64,000 nt of DNA, taken from NCBI GenBank assembly GCA_031253545.1, contig JAIRWH010000068.1, forward strand, positions 16,165 through 80,164, written 5' to 3'. This document shows, in pieces, positions 3,959 through 58,400 of this stretch. The first letter of the stretch is position 1. Each line of letters begins with the position of its first letter. The notes beneath the pieces are model-generated. The model was not told the origin of the DNA. It made no database searches and saw only the letters and a list, made by a program, of their open reading frames with translations. This DNA is from Oscillospiraceae bacterium. Its GTDB lineage: Bacteria; Bacillota; Clostridia; Oscillospirales; UBA929. Made by a program: the position numbers and the translations under genes.

Positions 3959-3999
3959 GGGGAAACACTCCTTCCGTAACGGACGGGGTCACCCCTTGT

Positions 4000-4103
4000 T
4001 TTTCTCCCTACGCCCGCATTACCGGGGTCAGGTTCCAAGGGTTCGCGGCGGCGTTACGCCGCGTCTCAGCCGGTTTGCTCCGGCACCCCGCGTTATCCGA
4101 TTT
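4000..4103 (-). promoter_or_regulatory. TPP (THI-box) riboswitch in the thiT leader
   Basis: Reverse strand reads GGGGUGCCGGAGCAAACCGGCUGAGA...ACCCUUGGAACCUGACCCCGGUAAUGCGGGCGUAGGGA. This matches the conserved THI element blocks (GGGGUGC, GCUGAGA, ACCC, AACCUGA, GGUAAU, CGUAGGGA). Confidence 0.85.
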
Positions 4104-4201: not shown

Positions 4202-4300
4202 TTAGTAGTTAGTTGTTAGTGGTTAGTGATTAGGGGTTAGGGGGCGGGGGTTGCCAAGCCGGGCGGAAGGGGGCGGTACCCTTTGGGTTGGCGGGCTTTT
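4202..4300. repeat. intergenic modular repeat copy (inverted orientation): GGTTAGT heptamer array plus GC-rich module
   Basis: ttagtagttagttgttagtggttagtgattaggggttaggggg has TAG every 7 nt, followed by gggggcgggggttgcc...gggcgg. It is the reverse complement of the ACTAACC arrays seen at 11952, 55826 and 58352. Confidence 0.7.
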
Positions 4301-11845: not shown

Positions 11846-11990
11846 TTCCATTCGCCCCCGCCCGCCCGCCCGCCCGCAGCAGAGCGAGGGCTGCCGCCCC
11901 CGCACCCCCGCGACCCCCGCAACCCCCCCGCGACCCCCGCGACCCCCGTCTCCTAACCACTAACCACTAACCACTAACAACTAACCACGA
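11846..11990. repeat. intergenic modular repeat copy: (CCCG)5, GAGGGCTGCCGCCCCCGCACCCCCGCG core, CGCGACCCCCG iterations, ACTAACC heptamer array
   Basis: The 29-nt core gcgagggctgccgcccccgcacccccgcg is identical to the one at 43288-43316. TAA occurs every 7 nt from 11954 to 11984. Confidence 0.8.
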
Positions 11991-14721: not shown

Positions 14722-14885
14722 GGGCGGTCGGGCGGCAACCGGCAGCCCCGCACCCCCGCCCCCGCTCCCCGTAGGGGCGGTTGTCCTCAACCGCCCGCCG
14801 TAACTCCCGCAACGGACGGGGAACGCGCCTTTCGGGCAAGGCCAAGGGGCTGTGCGCCTTCACACCCCTCCCCGGCATAGGCAAA
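14722..14885. repeat. intergenic modular repeat copy (GC-rich module plus GGGAACGCGCCTTTCGGGCAAGGYCAAGGGGCT module)
   Basis: gggaacgcgcctttcgggcaaggccaaggggct at about 14818-14850 recurs at about 56557-56589 with one mismatch. cggcagccccgcacccccgc resembles the family core. Confidence 0.7.
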
Positions 14886-32463: not shown

Positions 32464-32539
32464 GCTGCTGTAGCTCAAACGGCAGAGCGCGTCCTTGGTA
32501 AGGACGAGGTAGCCGGTTCAATCCCGGCCAGCAGCTCCA
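32464..32539 (+). tRNA. tRNA-Thr (anticodon GGU), CCA encoded
   Basis: Hand-folded cloverleaf: acceptor GCTGCTG/CAGCAGC, D arm GCTC/GAGC, anticodon arm CGTCC-TTGGTAA-GGACG, T arm GCCGG-TTCAATC-CCGGC. 76 nt. Confidence 0.9.
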
Positions 32540-32546
32540 CTTGTGC

Positions 32547-32620
32547 AGGGGCATGATGTAATGGTAACATACCGGTCTCCAAAACCGTTTTTGAGGGTTC
32601 GAGTCCTTCTGCCCCTGCCA
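32547..32620 (+). tRNA. tRNA-Trp (anticodon CCA), CCA encoded
   Basis: Acceptor AGGGGCA/TGCCCCT, anticodon loop CTCCAAA, T arm GAGGG-TTCGAGT-CCTTC. 74 nt. Closely resembles B. subtilis tRNA-Trp (from memory). Confidence 0.9.
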
Positions 32621-54836: not shown

Positions 54837-55207
54837 GGCGTAAACTTTACAACAAGGGCGATATATGGCTCCTCGCGTTGCTACCGGCGGCGCTTGCCGC
54901 CTTGCTGCTGCTCTCGCGGCGCGGGGAGGGGGCGGAGCCGCCCCGCGCGGTGATTACCGAGGGCGGCGGCGAAGTAATGAGTGTGGCTTTAGACAAAGAC
55001 ATTACCTTTACCTTGCCGGGCGACGGCGCCGTCGCCTTCGAGGTCAGGGGCGGGGCGATAGCCTTTGTGAGCTCGGATTGCCCGGACAAGACATGCGTGA
55101 AAACGGGTTTTGTCGGTCGCCCGGGACAAATGAGCGTATGTGTGCCGCGCCGCCTGTTGCTCGCCGTACGCGGCGGGGAGCGCGACGAAGACACCGTGGC
55201 GTACTGA
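54833..55207 (+). CDS. NusG domain II-containing protein (DUF1312)
   Basis: N-terminal anchor, then SSDCPDKTCVKTGFVGRPGQMSVCVP, typical of the NusG_II family. Confidence 0.7.
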   Translation: MRRKLYNKGDIWLLALLPAALAALLLLSRRGEGAEPPRAVITEGGGEVMSVALDKDITFTLPGDGAVAFEVRGGAIAFVSSDCPDKTCVKTGFVGRPGQMSVCVPRRLLLAVRGGERDEDTVAY

Positions 55208-55208
55208 C

Positions 55209-55745
55209 ATGAAGAAAGCGCGGGAGACGGCTTTCACGGGGCTTATGCTGGCGATAATGCTCGCGCTCACGTTCGTCGAGCACAGCCTGCCCCCGTTGCC
55301 GTTGCTGCCGCCGGGCATAAGGCTCGGCTTGGCGAACATCGCGCCGATGTATTGCGTGTTCTTCGGGGGCAGAACCCGCGCTGTGGCGCTGAACGCGCTG
55401 AAAGCGGGGTTTGTGCTGCTCACGCGCGGCGGGGCGGCGGGGCTGCTCAGTTTTTGCGGGGGCATGCTCTCCGTGGGCGTGGTGATATTGCTCGTGGCGT
55501 TTTTCGGGGAAAAGGCGTCTTATACGTCCGTGAGCGTGGCGGGCGCGTGCGCCCACAACGCGGGGCAATTCGCCGCCGCGTGGCTGCTGCTGCGCTCGCC
55601 GTATTTTTTAGCTTACCTGCCGATGCTGCTTTTGTCGGGCATACTCATGGGGTGCGCCACGGCGGCCTTGCTGCGCGCCGCGCTGCCCGCCCTGGGGCGT
55701 TTGGACATATGGTCCACCCGGCCGCGCAATCGCCGCCGGGAATAA
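55209..55745 (+). CDS. Gx transporter family protein (heptaprenyl diphosphate synthase component I-like)
   Basis: Track ORF trimmed to MKKARETAFTGLMLAIMLALTFVEHSLPPLPLLPPGIRLGLANI. 178-aa polytopic protein. Confidence 0.7.
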   Translation: MKKARETAFTGLMLAIMLALTFVEHSLPPLPLLPPGIRLGLANIAPMYCVFFGGRTRAVALNALKAGFVLLTRGGAAGLLSFCGGMLSVGVVILLVAFFGEKASYTSVSVAGACAHNAGQFAAAWLLLRSPYFLAYLPMLLLSGILMGCATAALLRAALPALGRLDIWSTRPRNRRRE

Positions 55746-55749
55746 AGGC

Positions 55750-56060
55750 GCGCCGCCCCGCCATTCCCGCCCGCTCGGTTTATGGCTGCGCCCCCGCAAC
55801 ACCCGTTCCCCCGCAACCTCCGTCCCCTAACCACTAACCACTAACCACTAACAACTATATCCCCACTCACGTGGTGCGCTATTACGCTTCGCATAATAAG
55901 TTTATCCGCTGACAACTAACAACTAACCACATCGAGGGTGTGGGGGCGGCAGCCCCCGGCCTTTTTGGGCGGGCGGGCGGGATACAATCCCGCGCGGCGT
56001 GCTATTACGCTTCGCGCAATAGGTTTATCCGCTATCCGCCAAAACTCCTACCAAACCCCC
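55750..56060. repeat. repeat hub part 1: GC-rich module, ACTAACC arrays, two copies of the CACGTG/hairpin module, inverted GC module with (GGGC)4
   Basis: TAA every 7 nt at 55828-55851. Module ccccactcacgtggtgcgctattacgcttcgcataataagtttatccgct at 55861-55910, with a diverged copy at 55990-56033. gggggcggcagccccc at 55942-55957 and gggcgggcgggcggg at 55967-55981. Confidence 0.8.
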
Positions 56061-56089
56061 TTGACAAGCCCCTCGCCCCGTGATACAAT
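56061..56089 (+). promoter_or_regulatory. strong sigma-A type promoter driving a short non-coding transcript
   Basis: TTGACA (56061-56066), 17-bp spacer, TGaTACAAT extended -10 (56084-56089). Confidence 0.65.
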
Positions 56090-56095
56090 GGGCAT

Positions 56096-56179
56096 ACAAA
56101 AGGGCGCTGCCGTCAAGCGGTTAGCCTAAGGGAAGCGAAAAATAACCGCTATACCTTGGCCGGTGGGCGGTTATTTTTT
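56096..56179 (+). ncRNA. candidate small RNA of about 85 nt (type I antitoxin candidate), ending in a bidirectional terminator
   Basis: Bounded by the promoter above and the hairpin aataaccgc-N17-gcggttatt (56141-56175) plus a T-run to 56179. No plausible ORF inside. The 3' end is antisense to the stop-codon region and terminator of the convergent 29-codon ORF. Confidence 0.5.
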
Positions 56180-56260
56180 CTTGCCTTTGCCGTTTATTAT
56201 CGCCACAATAATCGCGACTAACGCGAGAAGTAACGAAAGAATCTCGTACAAAGACAACAT
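56171..56260 (-). CDS. 29-aa hydrophobic peptide with lysine-rich C-terminus (type I toxin / holin-like toxin candidate): MLSLYEILSLLLALVAIIVAIINGKGKKK
   Basis: Not in the ORF track (too short). ATG at 56258-56260, TAA at 56171-56173. SD GGGGGTGA 5-6 nt upstream. Own promoter. The terminator begins at the stop codon. A single predicted TM helix followed by KGKKK. Confidence 0.6.
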   Translation of the reverse strand: MLSLYEILSLLLALVAIIVAIINGKGKKK

Positions 56261-56325
56261 CGGCCTCACCCCCTTTCACGGAGGGTATTGGCTAACCGCC
56301 TGCTTTTCAGGCAACGCCCATAAGG

Positions 56326-56354
56326 TTTATACCACAGCGCGGGCAATAAGTCAA
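56326..56354 (-). promoter_or_regulatory. sigma-A type promoter for the 29-codon ORF
   Basis: Reverse strand TTGACT (56349-56354), 17-bp spacer, TGgTATAAA extended -10 (56326-56331). Predicts a 5' UTR of about 58 nt. Confidence 0.6.
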
Positions 56355-56360
56355 TCCGAA

Positions 56361-56726
56361 ATCCCGAAACCCCGCCCGCCCGCCGCAAAGGAGCGGGGGC
56401 TGCCGCCCCCGCGCCCCCAACGGGGGCGGGGAACGCGTCGGCTTTCGCGCCCTGCTGTATACTGCGGTATTACGCTTCCCCCAACGGGGACGGGGAACGC
56501 AAGGCGTATTACCCGGTTTGGCGGGTTGTTGTGTTCGCGCCCTAACGGGGACAGGGAACGCGCCTTTCGGGCAAGGTCAAGGGGCTTCGCCCCCGCGCCC
56601 CGTCCCCTCGTCCGCAATCCCTGTCCCCTGACAACTAACAATTACATTCCCACTCACGTGGTGTGCTATTATGCTTCGCATAATAGATTTTTCCGTCCAC
56701 TAACCACTAACCGCTGACAACTAAAC
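56361..56726. repeat. repeat hub part 2: GC-rich module, three degenerate CCAACGGGGRCGGGGAACGC units, GGGAACGCGCCTTTCGGGCAAGG module, CACGTG/hairpin module, ACTAACC arrays
   Basis: ccccgcccgcccgcc...gggggctgccgcccccgc at 56370-56412. Units near 56416, 56482 and 56541. Perfect 9-bp hairpin ctattatgc-ttc-gcataatag at 56666-56686. Arrays at 56628-56646 and 56697-56726. Confidence 0.8.
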
Positions 56727-56774
56727 GCGCGGAGAGCGGGGTTTCACTTTTTTCCGAAAGGCGCGCGATACGGC

Positions 56775-56804
56775 TTGACAACACGGCGGCGGGTGTGGTA
56801 GCAT
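56775..56804 (+). promoter_or_regulatory. promoter candidate for the galactan-utilisation ABC operon
   Basis: TTGACA (56775-56780), 18-bp spacer, TAGCAT (56799-56804). Confidence 0.4.
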
Positions 56805-56957
56805 AGGGGGTATAAAACGGAATAGATACTCGGCGCGCGGGGCGCAAGTACCGCCGCGCCCCCGCGAAGGGTCGGTCGGAGTCCGCGTGGCCGGCTCTTA
56901 CGCGCCCGCGCGGGCGCTCTCGGCGGACAACAAAATTATTTTACGGGAGGAACAAAC

Positions 56958-58241
56958 ATGAAAAAGCGTATACCCGCCCTACTGCTCGCGCTCACGCTCT
57001 GCTTCACCCTGTTCGGCTGCGCCTCGCCCTCCGGCAGCGACGCGCCGAGCGGCTCCTCGCCGGGCACAAGCCCCGGCGGCTCGTCTCCGAGCGATTCCAC
57101 TCCGGCGGAGGTCAAGGACGTGCACCTGCGCGTGTGGGGCGCGGAAGAGGACCAGGTCATGCTAAAGAGCATGCTCGACGCTTTCGCCGACGCGAACAAA
57201 GCGCAAATCAACTTCACCTACGACCTCGGAGTGCAGGGTGAGGGCGGCACGAAAGACACCGTTCTCGTGGACATCGAGGCCGCCGCCGACGTGTACGCCT
57301 TCGCCCACGACCAAATCGGCGAGCTGTATAAGGCCGGCGCTTTGCAGGAAGTGCTCGACAATGTCGCCGACATCAAGAGCCGCAATGTGTCCAGCTCTGT
57401 GGAGGCCGCCACTGTGGACGGCAAGCTCATGGCGTATCCCATGACCGCCGACAACGGCTACTTTATGTTCTATAACTCGTCCTACTTCACCGAAGACGAT
57501 GTGAAGTCGTTCGACGGCATGCTGGCAAAGGCCGAGGCGGCGGGCAAGAAAATCTCAATGGAGCTTACCTCCGGCTGGTACAACTACGCGTTCTTCAAGG
57601 CCGGCGGCCTCAACGCGAGCCTCAACGACGACGGCGTGACCAATGACTGCGACTGGAACGGCCCCGGCGGCACCGACGTGTTGCAGGCCATGCTCGACTT
57701 AGCCAAGCACCCGGCGTTCGTGTCGCTCGGCTCAGACGAGTTTAAGGCCGGCGTAATAGACGGCTCGGTTATTGCGGGCGTGAGCGGCACATGGAACGCG
57801 GGCGCCGTGGCGGAGGCGTGGGGCGAGAGCTACGCCGCGTCTAAGCTGCCCACCGTGGCCATCGCCGGGGAGCAAAAGCAACTCGGCTCTTTCTCCGGCT
57901 ATAAGCTCATCGGCGTGAACGCTTTCTGCCAAGAGACGGGCTGGGCCATGAGGCTCGCGGATTACCTTACCAACTACGATAACTCACTCAGGCGCTTCAA
58001 CGAGCGTCAGCAAGGCCCGTCCAACACCCTGGCGGCCGCCTCCGACGCCGTGAAGAGCGACCCGGCGCAGCTTGCCATCGCCACGCAGATGCAATTCGCC
58101 ACCCCGCAGATTATCGGGGGCAATTACTGGAGCCCCGCCCAGACGCTGGGTGAGATAATCGTGCAGGGCAACCCCTCCGGCACCCCCTTGCAGACCCTCT
58201 TAGACAACGCCGTGGCGGGTATCACCGCTCCCGTGGGCTGA
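56958..58241 (+). CDS. sugar ABC transporter substrate-binding lipoprotein (family 1; maltodextrin/galacto-oligosaccharide type)
   Basis: Lipobox LFGCAS, Ser/Pro/Gly linker, 427 aa. Context with MalF/MalG-type permeases and a GH53 galactanase suggests GanS/CycB-like function. Confidence 0.75.
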   Translation: MKKRIPALLLALTLCFTLFGCASPSGSDAPSGSSPGTSPGGSSPSDSTPAEVKDVHLRVWGAEEDQVMLKSMLDAFADANKAQINFTYDLGVQGEGGTKDTVLVDIEAAADVYAFAHDQIGELYKAGALQEVLDNVADIKSRNVSSSVEAATVDGKLMAYPMTADNGYFMFYNSSYFTEDDVKSFDGMLAKAEAAGKKISMELTSGWYNYAFFKAGGLNASLNDDGVTNDCDWNGPGGTDVLQAMLDLAKHPAFVSLGSDEFKAGVIDGSVIAGVSGTWNAGAVAEAWGESYAASKLPTVAIAGEQKQLGSFSGYKLIGVNAFCQETGWAMRLADYLTNYDNSLRRFNERQQGPSNTLAAASDAVKSDPAQLAIATQMQFATPQIIGGNYWSPAQTLGEIIVQGNPSGTPLQTLLDNAVAGITAPVG

Positions 58242-58289: not shown

Positions 58290-58400
58290 CTCGCCCCCGG
58301 CCCCGCCCGCCCGGTTTATGGCTGCCGCCCCCGCTCCCTTCGTCCCTTCGTCCACTAACAACTAACTACTAACCACTAACAACTAGCAACCAAACCAACC
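58290..58400. repeat. intergenic modular repeat copy inside the ABC operon (GC-rich module plus ACTAACN heptamer array)
   Basis: ccccgcccgcccggtttatggctgccgcccccgc resembles cccgcccgctcggtttatggctgcgcccccgc near 55770-55800. Array ccactaacaactaactactaaccactaacaactagcaacc at 58352-58391. Confidence 0.8.

Follow-up and report, generated by a model that had tools for sequence, protein, structure and literature searches.

The window analysed here is a 64-kb stretch of contig JAIRWH010000068.1 from an Oscillospiraceae bacterium, and the subject is a module at positions 56061-56354 that has the layout of a Gram-positive type I toxin-antitoxin system. A small hydrophobic peptide, the putative toxin, is encoded on the minus strand, and a predicted small RNA (sRNA), the putative antitoxin, would be transcribed toward it from the plus strand. 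Two general marks of type I systems are present, a small hydrophobic open reading frame (ORF) with its own promoter and ribosome-binding site and, at the level of predicted transcripts, a complementary antisense RNA gene with a promoter and a terminator. The elements of the module, named by their proposed roles, are as follows.

56326..56354, minus strand: toxin promoter, TTGACT (56354->56349), 17 nt, TGgTATAAA (-10 hexamer 56331->56326); promoter scan and sequence
56171..56260, minus strand: toxin ORF, 29 codons plus TAA, product MLSLYEILSLLLALVAIIVAIINGKGKKK; ORF listing and strand reading
56095..56319, minus strand: predicted long toxin mRNA of ~220 nt with the topology P1-SL1-SL2-SL3 (a helix P1 and stem-loops SL1 to SL3); fold z -5.56, 3' end placed by prediction
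56319->~56133, minus strand: alternative short mRNA, ending near 56133 at the shared hairpin; fold z -4.18
56290..56319, minus strand: 5' arms of P1 at the mRNA 5' end, GGGCGUUGCC (56319->56310) and CAGGCGGUUAGCC (56302->56290); folds
56266..56286, minus strand: SL1, in which the Shine-Dalgarno (SD) sequence GGGGGUGA (56273->56266) is bound by CCCUCC (56285->56280) over a GUGAAA loop; folds
56102..56126, minus strand: 3' arms of P1, GGCUAACCGCUUG (56126->56114) and GGCAGCGCCC (56111->56102), then UUUUGUAU; folds and sequence
56061..56089, plus strand: antitoxin promoter, TTGACA (56061-56066), 17 nt, TGaTACAAT (-10 hexamer 56084-56089); 11/12 matches, TG present
56096..56184, plus strand: predicted antitoxin sRNA of ~88 nt with a 5' hairpin, a terminator hairpin and U6; fold, both ends placed by prediction
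56102..56127, plus strand: 5' hairpin region of the sRNA, antisense to the 3' arms of P1
56138..56178, both strands: shared hairpin with a 12-bp stem AAAAAUAACCGC/GCGGUUAUUUUU and a 17-nt loop that contains an inner 3-bp stem; repeat search and folds

Promoters, reading frame and predicted transcripts

Promoter-like sites of this quality are rare in the window. Across both strands (128 kb), no more than 12 sites have at least 5/6 matches in both hexamers, and two of the 12 form the convergent pair, in which each promoter has an extended -10 (TG) and a spacer of 17 nt. Most of the other promoter-like sites among the 12 sit upstream of genes. The predicted start of the toxin mRNA is G56319 or A56321, G56319 being the likely one, and that of the sRNA is A56094 or A56096.

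The toxin ORF starts with ATG at 56260 and stops with TAA at 56173-56171. Its SD GGGGGTGA, at 56273->56266, lies 5 nt ahead of the ATG, and the core of the SD sits in GAAAGGGGGUGA. The peptide consists of a single hydrophobic helix followed by a GKGKKK tail. In a scan of the window for small ORFs, no other had a hydrophobic helix together with a K/R tail and an SD.

The stop codon falls within one arm of the shared hairpin, the arms being AAAAATAACCGC (56138-56149) and GCGGTTATTTTT (56167-56178). On the plus strand the hairpin would serve as the terminator of the sRNA, and the U-tract of the sRNA (56179-56184) is the complement of the toxin KKK codons. On the minus strand it would be SL3 of the toxin mRNA, or a terminator; because an A-run and a U-run flank it on both sides, it could also stop the mRNA. 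The loops that it forms in the two RNAs are perfectly complementary, and these 17-nt loops are candidates for a first kissing contact.

The elements GCGGTTA and TAACCGC alternate four times within 183 bp, at 56117-56123, 56143-56149, 56167-56173 and 56293-56299. The copies permit mutually exclusive pairings in both RNAs, the leader with the post-stop element as against the terminator hairpin, and the 5' element of the sRNA with its own terminator arm. A co-transcriptional switch made of these alternating elements, examined by minimum free energy (MFE) folding, is possible.

All structures are single-sequence predictions. In the long mRNA, P1 is a helix of 10+13 bp in which GGGCGUUGCC pairs with GGCAGCGCCC and CAGGCGGUUAGCC with GGCUAACCGCUUG. 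Each arm has one imperfect position, a G-U pair in minus-strand RNA and a C-A mismatch in plus-strand RNA, and since these departures pair as G-U only on the minus strand, the sequence assigns P1 to the toxin mRNA. SL1 consists of CCCUCC-GUGAAA-GGGGGU, SL2 lies inside the ORF and SL3 is the shared hairpin. Pairing of CCCUCC with the SD occurred in every predicted fold, and the unpaired probability of GGGGG was 0.00. With the sRNA-complementary segment blocked, SL1 was predicted to grow from 6 to 10 bp, with increased pairing of the AUG.

The sRNA folds with an MFE of -33.6 kcal/mol (z -2.66). Its 5' hairpin region, being antisense to the P1 3' arms, resembles the mRNA 5' end (GGGCGCUGCC...GCGGUUAGCC). 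No Rfam family matched the plus-strand sRNA in searches of 2.5 kb and of the whole 64 kb.

The module's combination of features exceeds chance expectation, because the promoter pair is rare, the small ORF is unique and the fold z-scores are strongly negative. Its main parts had been recognised in the initial annotation, which named two near-consensus convergent promoters, a 29-codon ORF on the minus strand (56260->56171), a hairpin with an A-run and a T-run on the stop codon, a leader able to occlude its own SD and an RNA partner without a recognisable family, all in the layout of a Gram-positive type I system; the present analysis agrees with it on each of these.

It differs on the extent of the overlap, which the initial annotation put at ~40 nt with both RNAs ending at the hairpin. 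The first 42 nt of the sRNA are the exact antisense of the 3' arms of P1. Tested on the mRNA 5' untranslated region and ORF, they gave a best duplex of -27.8 kcal/mol, the shuffle mean being -29.0 kcal/mol and 181/300 shuffles being at least as good. Read-through of SL3 by the toxin mRNA, at least partly, to ~56095-56102 is favoured because these 42 nt would otherwise be partnerless, yet are antisense to the P1 3' arms. The overlap is then probably ~85-90 nt instead of ~40. The predicted complementarity of the two RNAs spans 50 to ~90 nt, and cofolding gave a duplex gain of -94 kcal/mol for the long form and -48 kcal/mol for the short form. Beyond the shared hairpin, a terminator scan found no terminator-like site downstream on the minus strand. 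The 3' end of the long form could be set by P1 plus U4, or by exonuclease trimming back to P1.

Family resemblance of the peptide and the mRNA

A Pfam search of the peptide gave Hol_Tox (PF16935) as the sole match, with 14.8 bits and an E-value of 0.027, below the 23.3-bit gathering cut-off. The alignment places peptide residues 9-29 on profile positions 15-34. None of 10 shuffled peptides that preserved the NGKGKKK tail matched Hol_Tox (E<=10), and the match, weak as it is, therefore does not appear to be purely compositional, that is, a product of a hydrophobic stretch plus lysines. Two control peptides, BsrG (34.5 bits) and TxpA (31.3 bits), both exceeded the cut-off on the Hol_Tox model, from which Hol_Tox is taken to be the TxpA/BsrG family. 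The sequences used for them were verified (98-100% identity to SPbeta-type phages and database proteins). In a three-sequence MAFFT alignment, which needs a 10-residue gap in the helix and has no statistical weight, the Y, E, L and KK of the peptide align with BsrG and TxpA. Fst_toxin (PF13955) did not match the peptide at E<=10, the Fst control matching at E 8.7e-5, and searches of NCBIfam and PHROGs gave no meaningful match. The likeness to Hol-Tox peptides that the initial annotation had pointed out is real but weak in the profile search it had proposed. Hol_Tox is the only Pfam family found and was matched by 0/10 shuffles, but the score of 14.8 bits stays under the cut-off of 23.3, and the other toxin family, Fst_toxin, is not matched. 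Its shape and the weak family match suggest that the peptide is a membrane-active toxin.

Rfam points in the same direction. At a permissive threshold, positions 55000-57500 gave BsrG (RF01412) as the first-ranked match, with 21.7 bits and E 0.02, the cut-off being 55. The alignment covers the full-length model (56324->56070, minus strand) and is in register, with ATG on ATG and the A-run and stop codon on their counterparts. In a search of the whole 64 kb, BsrG (E 0.51) was the best sub-threshold match, behind two transfer RNAs (tRNAs) and a thiamine pyrophosphate (TPP) riboswitch. Structure probing of the bsrG mRNA showed that its 5' nt 1-35 pair with nt 232-262 to form helix P1 and that the SD lies in a 4-bp stem of SL1; SL2 has the start codon at its 5' base, SL3 contains the stop codon within its 5' part, and P1 is followed by a terminator, SL4 (PMC3834814). 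The MFE fold of true bsrG reproduces this probed topology, and the MFE fold of 56319->56095 has the same arrangement: P1, then SL1 around the SD, then SL2, and the stop codon within SL3. The SL4 columns of the Rfam model hold mismatched pairs in the alignment, and there is no terminator-like site at that place. The Pfam and Rfam libraries are largely independent, the RNA model including the coding region. Both single out the same studied system, though neither match establishes membership. The initial annotation had likened the arrangement to fst/RNAII, txpA/RatA and bsrG/SR4. The bsrG/SR4 part of this is upheld by the best Rfam match and the shared mRNA topology; a mechanism of the fst/par type is not.

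Proposed mechanism and alternative readings

With a probability of roughly 0.6, the locus is a compact chromosomal type I toxin-antitoxin module that works like bsrG/SR4. It may be a diverged bsrG relative or a convergent design. From the sequence elements, predicted folds and library matches that are seen directly, we infer transcription, RNA ends, toxicity, RNase dependence and the order of pairing as follows. The promoter at 56354->56326 would drive a minus-strand mRNA from near G56319. The first 30 nt of this mRNA would pair with sequence 3' of the ORF (56126->56102) as helix P1, from which three stem-loops extend: SL1, locking the SD GGGGGUGA to CCCUCC, SL2 in the ORF, and SL3, whose 5' arm includes the stop codon. 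By analogy, the peptide would act at the membrane as a toxin. The convergent promoter (56061-56089), equally strong, would make the ~88-nt sRNA, which would end at the antisense of SL3 with a U-tract templated by the KKK codons. A kissing contact would form first between the complementary 17-nt loops, and pairing would then proceed toward the sRNA 5' end, displacing the P1 5' arm. The resulting duplex of 50-90 bp would be a substrate for RNase III, and the freed leader would extend SL1 from 6 to 10 bp, tightening the block of the ribosome-binding site.

Several points weigh against this reading. The matches fail their thresholds, in Pfam with 14.8 vs 23.3 bits, the alignment being restricted to residues 9-29 with the YE motif outside, and in Rfam with 21.7 vs 55 bits, where a true bsrG control scored 185.3 bits. 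The structures rest on single-sequence prediction, and the SD is paired in all predicted states, so that a route to translation is not evident from the folds. No separate terminator follows P1, just UUUUGUAU, and the shared hairpin could halt the mRNA before P1 forms. A homologue of the peptide or module was absent from all collections searched, hence there is no support from conservation or covariation. Also, the module is chromosomal and outside any prophage, whereas bsrG lies in the B. subtilis prophage SPbeta.

Both RNAs might instead end at the shared hairpin as a bidirectional terminator, with an overlap of ~40-50 nt, the sRNA promoting mRNA decay through the 3' duplex. Such a short, terminator-sharing form also counts as a type I module. 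It accords with the A-run and U-run on both sides of the hairpin, with the -48 kcal/mol gained by the hairpin overlap alone, with the fold of the short mRNA (z -4.18) and with the lack of another good minus-strand terminator downstream. It is nevertheless doubtful: it leaves the 42-nt 5' half of the sRNA without a target (-27.8 vs shuffle mean -29.0 kcal/mol; 181/300) and gives no explanation for the 10+13 bp that complement the mRNA 5' end or for their strand-specific G-U pairs, while the direct repeats by which par RNAs pair 5' to 5' are absent and Fst_toxin does not match. A more elaborate proposal, which we consider unlikely, is an independently evolved minimal type I system in which the GCGGUUA/UAACCGC elements (56117, 56143, 56167, 56293) act as a co-transcriptional switch and a 440-bp unit could be a mobile cassette. 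Pairing of the leader with the post-stop element would compete with the shared hairpin and decide between short termination and read-through that closes P1, and one hairpin would be sRNA terminator, conditional mRNA terminator and kissing-loop target. The cassette would be the 440-bp unit between inverted GC-rich repeat copies, with a G+C 11 points below that of the genome.

The remaining readings dispense with the toxin or with the module itself. The peptide could be a non-toxic small membrane protein, such as a modulator of a membrane complex, with its mRNA under cis-antisense control. Its toxin role being a prediction and its score lying below the Hol_Tox cut-off would allow this, as would the position of the locus amid housekeeping and sugar-use genes, not in a prophage or plasmid, and the weak toxicity of some family members such as BsrE (PMC6562991). 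The multi-layer silencing (SD sequestered, 5' end paired, a strong constitutive-looking antisense promoter) is however typical of toxins, and the sole library matches are a toxin family and a toxin mRNA, which makes this account quite unlikely. It is very improbable that the locus holds chance or decayed promoter-like and hairpin sequences in repeat-rich intergenic DNA, perhaps with an orphan sRNA or a bidirectional terminator. The interval is indeed crowded with dispersed repeats and hairpins, homologues are lacking and the evidence is predictive throughout; but the module sequence lies outside the repeat families of the window, two of the 12 best promoter-like sites converge on it, no other ORF of the window joins a hydrophobic helix to a K tail and an SD, and two libraries agree on one system, with a fold z of -5.6.

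Homologue searches, neighbourhood and repeats

Searches with the peptide covered proteins, genomes and mobile elements. A word-index search, run with a tandem peptide as at least 40 aa are needed, gave no match, nor did an exhaustive phmmer search of a 32-aa GTG-start version against 1.84 billion representatives. An exact look-up of the 32-aa peptide returned no record, and a protein database of 5.8 billion clusters does not contain the ORF. Plasmids and phages gave no homologue by tblastn of the peptide and a single 44-nt chance match by blastn of the module. A degenerate pattern of codons, Y-E followed by 12 hydrophobic codons and a K/R tail, had 6 matches in 185,579 species genomes, 5 of them clearly chance. 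On IMG/VR the same pattern had 1 match, interrupted by stop codons; a variable-length pattern gave no hydrophobic peptide among the first 120 matches listed, and a peptide-based locus search gave no match. A profile built from the window peptide together with BsrG and TxpA retrieved no proteins other than TxpA and BsrG of Bacillus.

One doubtful candidate from a Clostridia metagenome-assembled genome (MAG) was not retained. Its ORF, MSDYEILAIILMFLNIIVLILLNKDKK..., runs 62 aa into a convergent gene, and it has no Pfam match, convergent promoter or hairpin. This ORF of 62 codons (MSDYEILAIILMFLNIIVLILLNKDKKLTAH..., SD GAGCGGGGTGA) lies at 349-537 on the minus strand of RGIG7689 contig JAFZEI010000033.1, directly after a tRNA gene. 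Its AAAAAACTAACCGCCCAC is similar to AAAAAATAACCGCCCAC at the stop codon of the window ORF. The candidate is probably a chance occurrence, but could be a distant or frameshifted relative.

Flanking genes were used in the same way. An exact look-up of the flanking sugar-binding protein found only an identical 2.2-kb contig from one sequencing run, which ends at 56686 within repeats, before the module. The module was found in none of 80 metagenome loci with homologues of this protein (50-66% identity). The flanking Gx-family protein was found on one 84-kb contig only, its nearest relatives being at most 62% identical and likewise not carrying the module. By these comparisons the lineage is isolated, without close sequenced relatives. 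The host is not a Bacillus; its lineage has 62% G+C and is related to Clostridia-type MAG proteins.

The module lies in a gene-free interval of 1.2 kb (55746-56957) in which repeats are also present, in agreement with its earlier description as a repeat hub. Its G+C is 51% vs 62% for the 64-kb window. There is no second copy within the window, and the module is outside every repeat family of the window, unlike its flanks, which belong to dispersed families. The upstream neighbours are dnaE, sugar kinases and apbE-nusG_II-Gx; downstream, the genes encode an ABC sugar transporter and an enzyme of family GH53. The neighbourhood consists of ordinary chromosomal genes and lacks those of phages or plasmids. 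A second promoter-like site at 56775-56804 (TTGACA, 18 nt, TGgTAGCAT, 10/12 matches) precedes the gene of the sugar-binding protein (56958) by ~150 nt, and the leader that follows this site (56805-56957) is GC-rich and contains palindromes, e.g. at 56902-56917. This site, rather than the antitoxin promoter, likely drives the ABC transporter operon.

Two copies of a GC-rich dispersed repeat, found by repeat search, form a 55-nt, 80% inverted repeat around the module.

55927..55981, no strand assigned: left copy, with hairpin GGGGGCGGCAGCCCCC and GGGC-type run GGGCGGGCGGGCGGG
56371..56425, no strand assigned: right copy, inverted

They are two opposed copies of the GC-rich part of a composite intergenic repeat that occurs at 11865-11990, 58300-58390, 55766-55857, 56692-56724 and, in reverse, 4203-4254. 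Its order is CCCGCCCGCCCG runs, a GAGGGCTGCCGCCCCCGC hairpin, ACCCCCGC(A/G)AC units and 3-6 heptamers (ACTAACC/ACTAACA). The copies at 11865-11990, 58300-58390 and 4203-4254 (reverse) stand just upstream of a gene and in the same orientation as the gene. Immediately to the right of the module, a 23-nt unit CCCCCAACGGGGACGGGGAACGC occurs three times (56414-56436, 56478-56500, 56539-56561) with 61-64 nt spacing and 83-100% identity; it is too short and its copies too few for the label of a CRISPR array. The segment 56549-56586 recurs at 14814-14851 with 95% identity. A 9-bp hairpin, CTATTA(C/T)GC-TTC-GC(A/G)(T/C)AATAG, is found at 55879-55899, 56002-56022 and 56666-56686 with conserved flanks; 55829-55908 and 56616-56695 form a direct repeat of 80 nt with 81% identity. 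A T-run follows the third copy (56666-56686), which scores as terminator-like and weakly matches Gut-1 in Rfam (E 0.74). Above the Rfam threshold, the window has only the TPP riboswitch at 3988-4100 (minus strand, 59.3 bits), which is preceded by a near-consensus promoter at 4138-4110, and two adjacent tRNA genes at 32464-32536 and 32547-32617 (both plus strand).

Comparison with known type I systems

The par system (fst/RNAII) of Enterococcus faecalis plasmid pAD1 resembles the module in its convergent transcription to a potentially bidirectional hairpin, and Fst, like the module peptide, is a small hydrophobic toxin of ~30 aa. In par, 5' direct repeats make both RNAs complementary at their 5' ends. 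The module repeat is inverted and pairs within the mRNA, unlike the par direct repeats (DRa/DRb). A par-like 5'-5' pairing was rejected on this ground and on the duplex energy of the sRNA 42 nt (-27.8 vs shuffle mean -29.0 kcal/mol). The module peptide does not match Fst_toxin.

The modules of Clostridioides difficile, e.g. CD2517.1/RCd8, share with this one a Clostridia-class host and convergent overlapping genes, and their toxins have a hydrophobic N-terminus and a lysine-rich C-terminus like the module peptide (PMC6563280). These toxins are 30-56 aa long, mostly 47-53, are encoded mostly on prophages or beside CRISPR arrays, and have no reported sequence homology to the B. subtilis families (PMC6563280). 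No similarity between them and the module peptide was detected in the homologue searches. In B. subtilis, bsrE/SR5 and bsrH/as-bsrH, compared by description, have toxins of 30 and 29 aa, close to the 29 aa of the module. The structures of bsrE mRNA and SR5 are reported to be strikingly similar to those of bsrG and SR4, SR5 leaves the SD helix unchanged, the bsrE/bsrH antitoxins are 163-200 nt long, and BsrE is only weakly toxic (PMC6562991).

Systems like txpA/bsrG have been reported from no more than a few Bacillus species and one Paenibacillus (PMC6562991), and homology searches for them found almost none in Clostridia (PMC6563280). If the bsrG/SR4-like reading is true, the range of the bsrG-type design would extend to an uncultured, Clostridia-like lineage of high G+C, and a very compact version, with an ~88-nt antitoxin and a 29-aa toxin, would help to dissect the essential RNA elements. 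Such loci escape gene callers and curated models alike. The biological gain is incremental, one further unannotated candidate type I module of a well-known kind.

The module differs from bsrG/SR4 in size, with a toxin of 29 aa vs 38 aa for BsrG and an antitoxin of ~88 nt vs ~180 nt for SR4. bsrG has SL4 after P1, where the module has only UUUUGUAU, and SL3 of the module, unlike that of bsrG, looks like a bidirectional terminator. The likenesses run through the whole unit. In both, a toxin mRNA and an antisense RNA converge from separate promoters; both mRNAs fold into P1, SL1 around the SD, SL2 within the ORF and SL3, whose 5' arm contains the stop codon; and the 12-mer UGAAAGGGGGUG is common to the two SD hairpins. 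The antitoxin terminator is in each case antisense to SL3, with a U-tract templated by the toxin lysine codons, and BsrG and the module peptide appear to have in common an N-terminal x-x-Y-E-x-L, one hydrophobic helix and a terminal KKK. The terminator loop of SR4 first meets loop 3 of the mRNA, then P1 is opened and the SD stem grows from 4 to 8 bp (PMC3834814). The lengthening of SL1 on antitoxin binding that was shown for bsrG/SR4 has its counterpart in the module as a predicted change from 6 to 10 bp.

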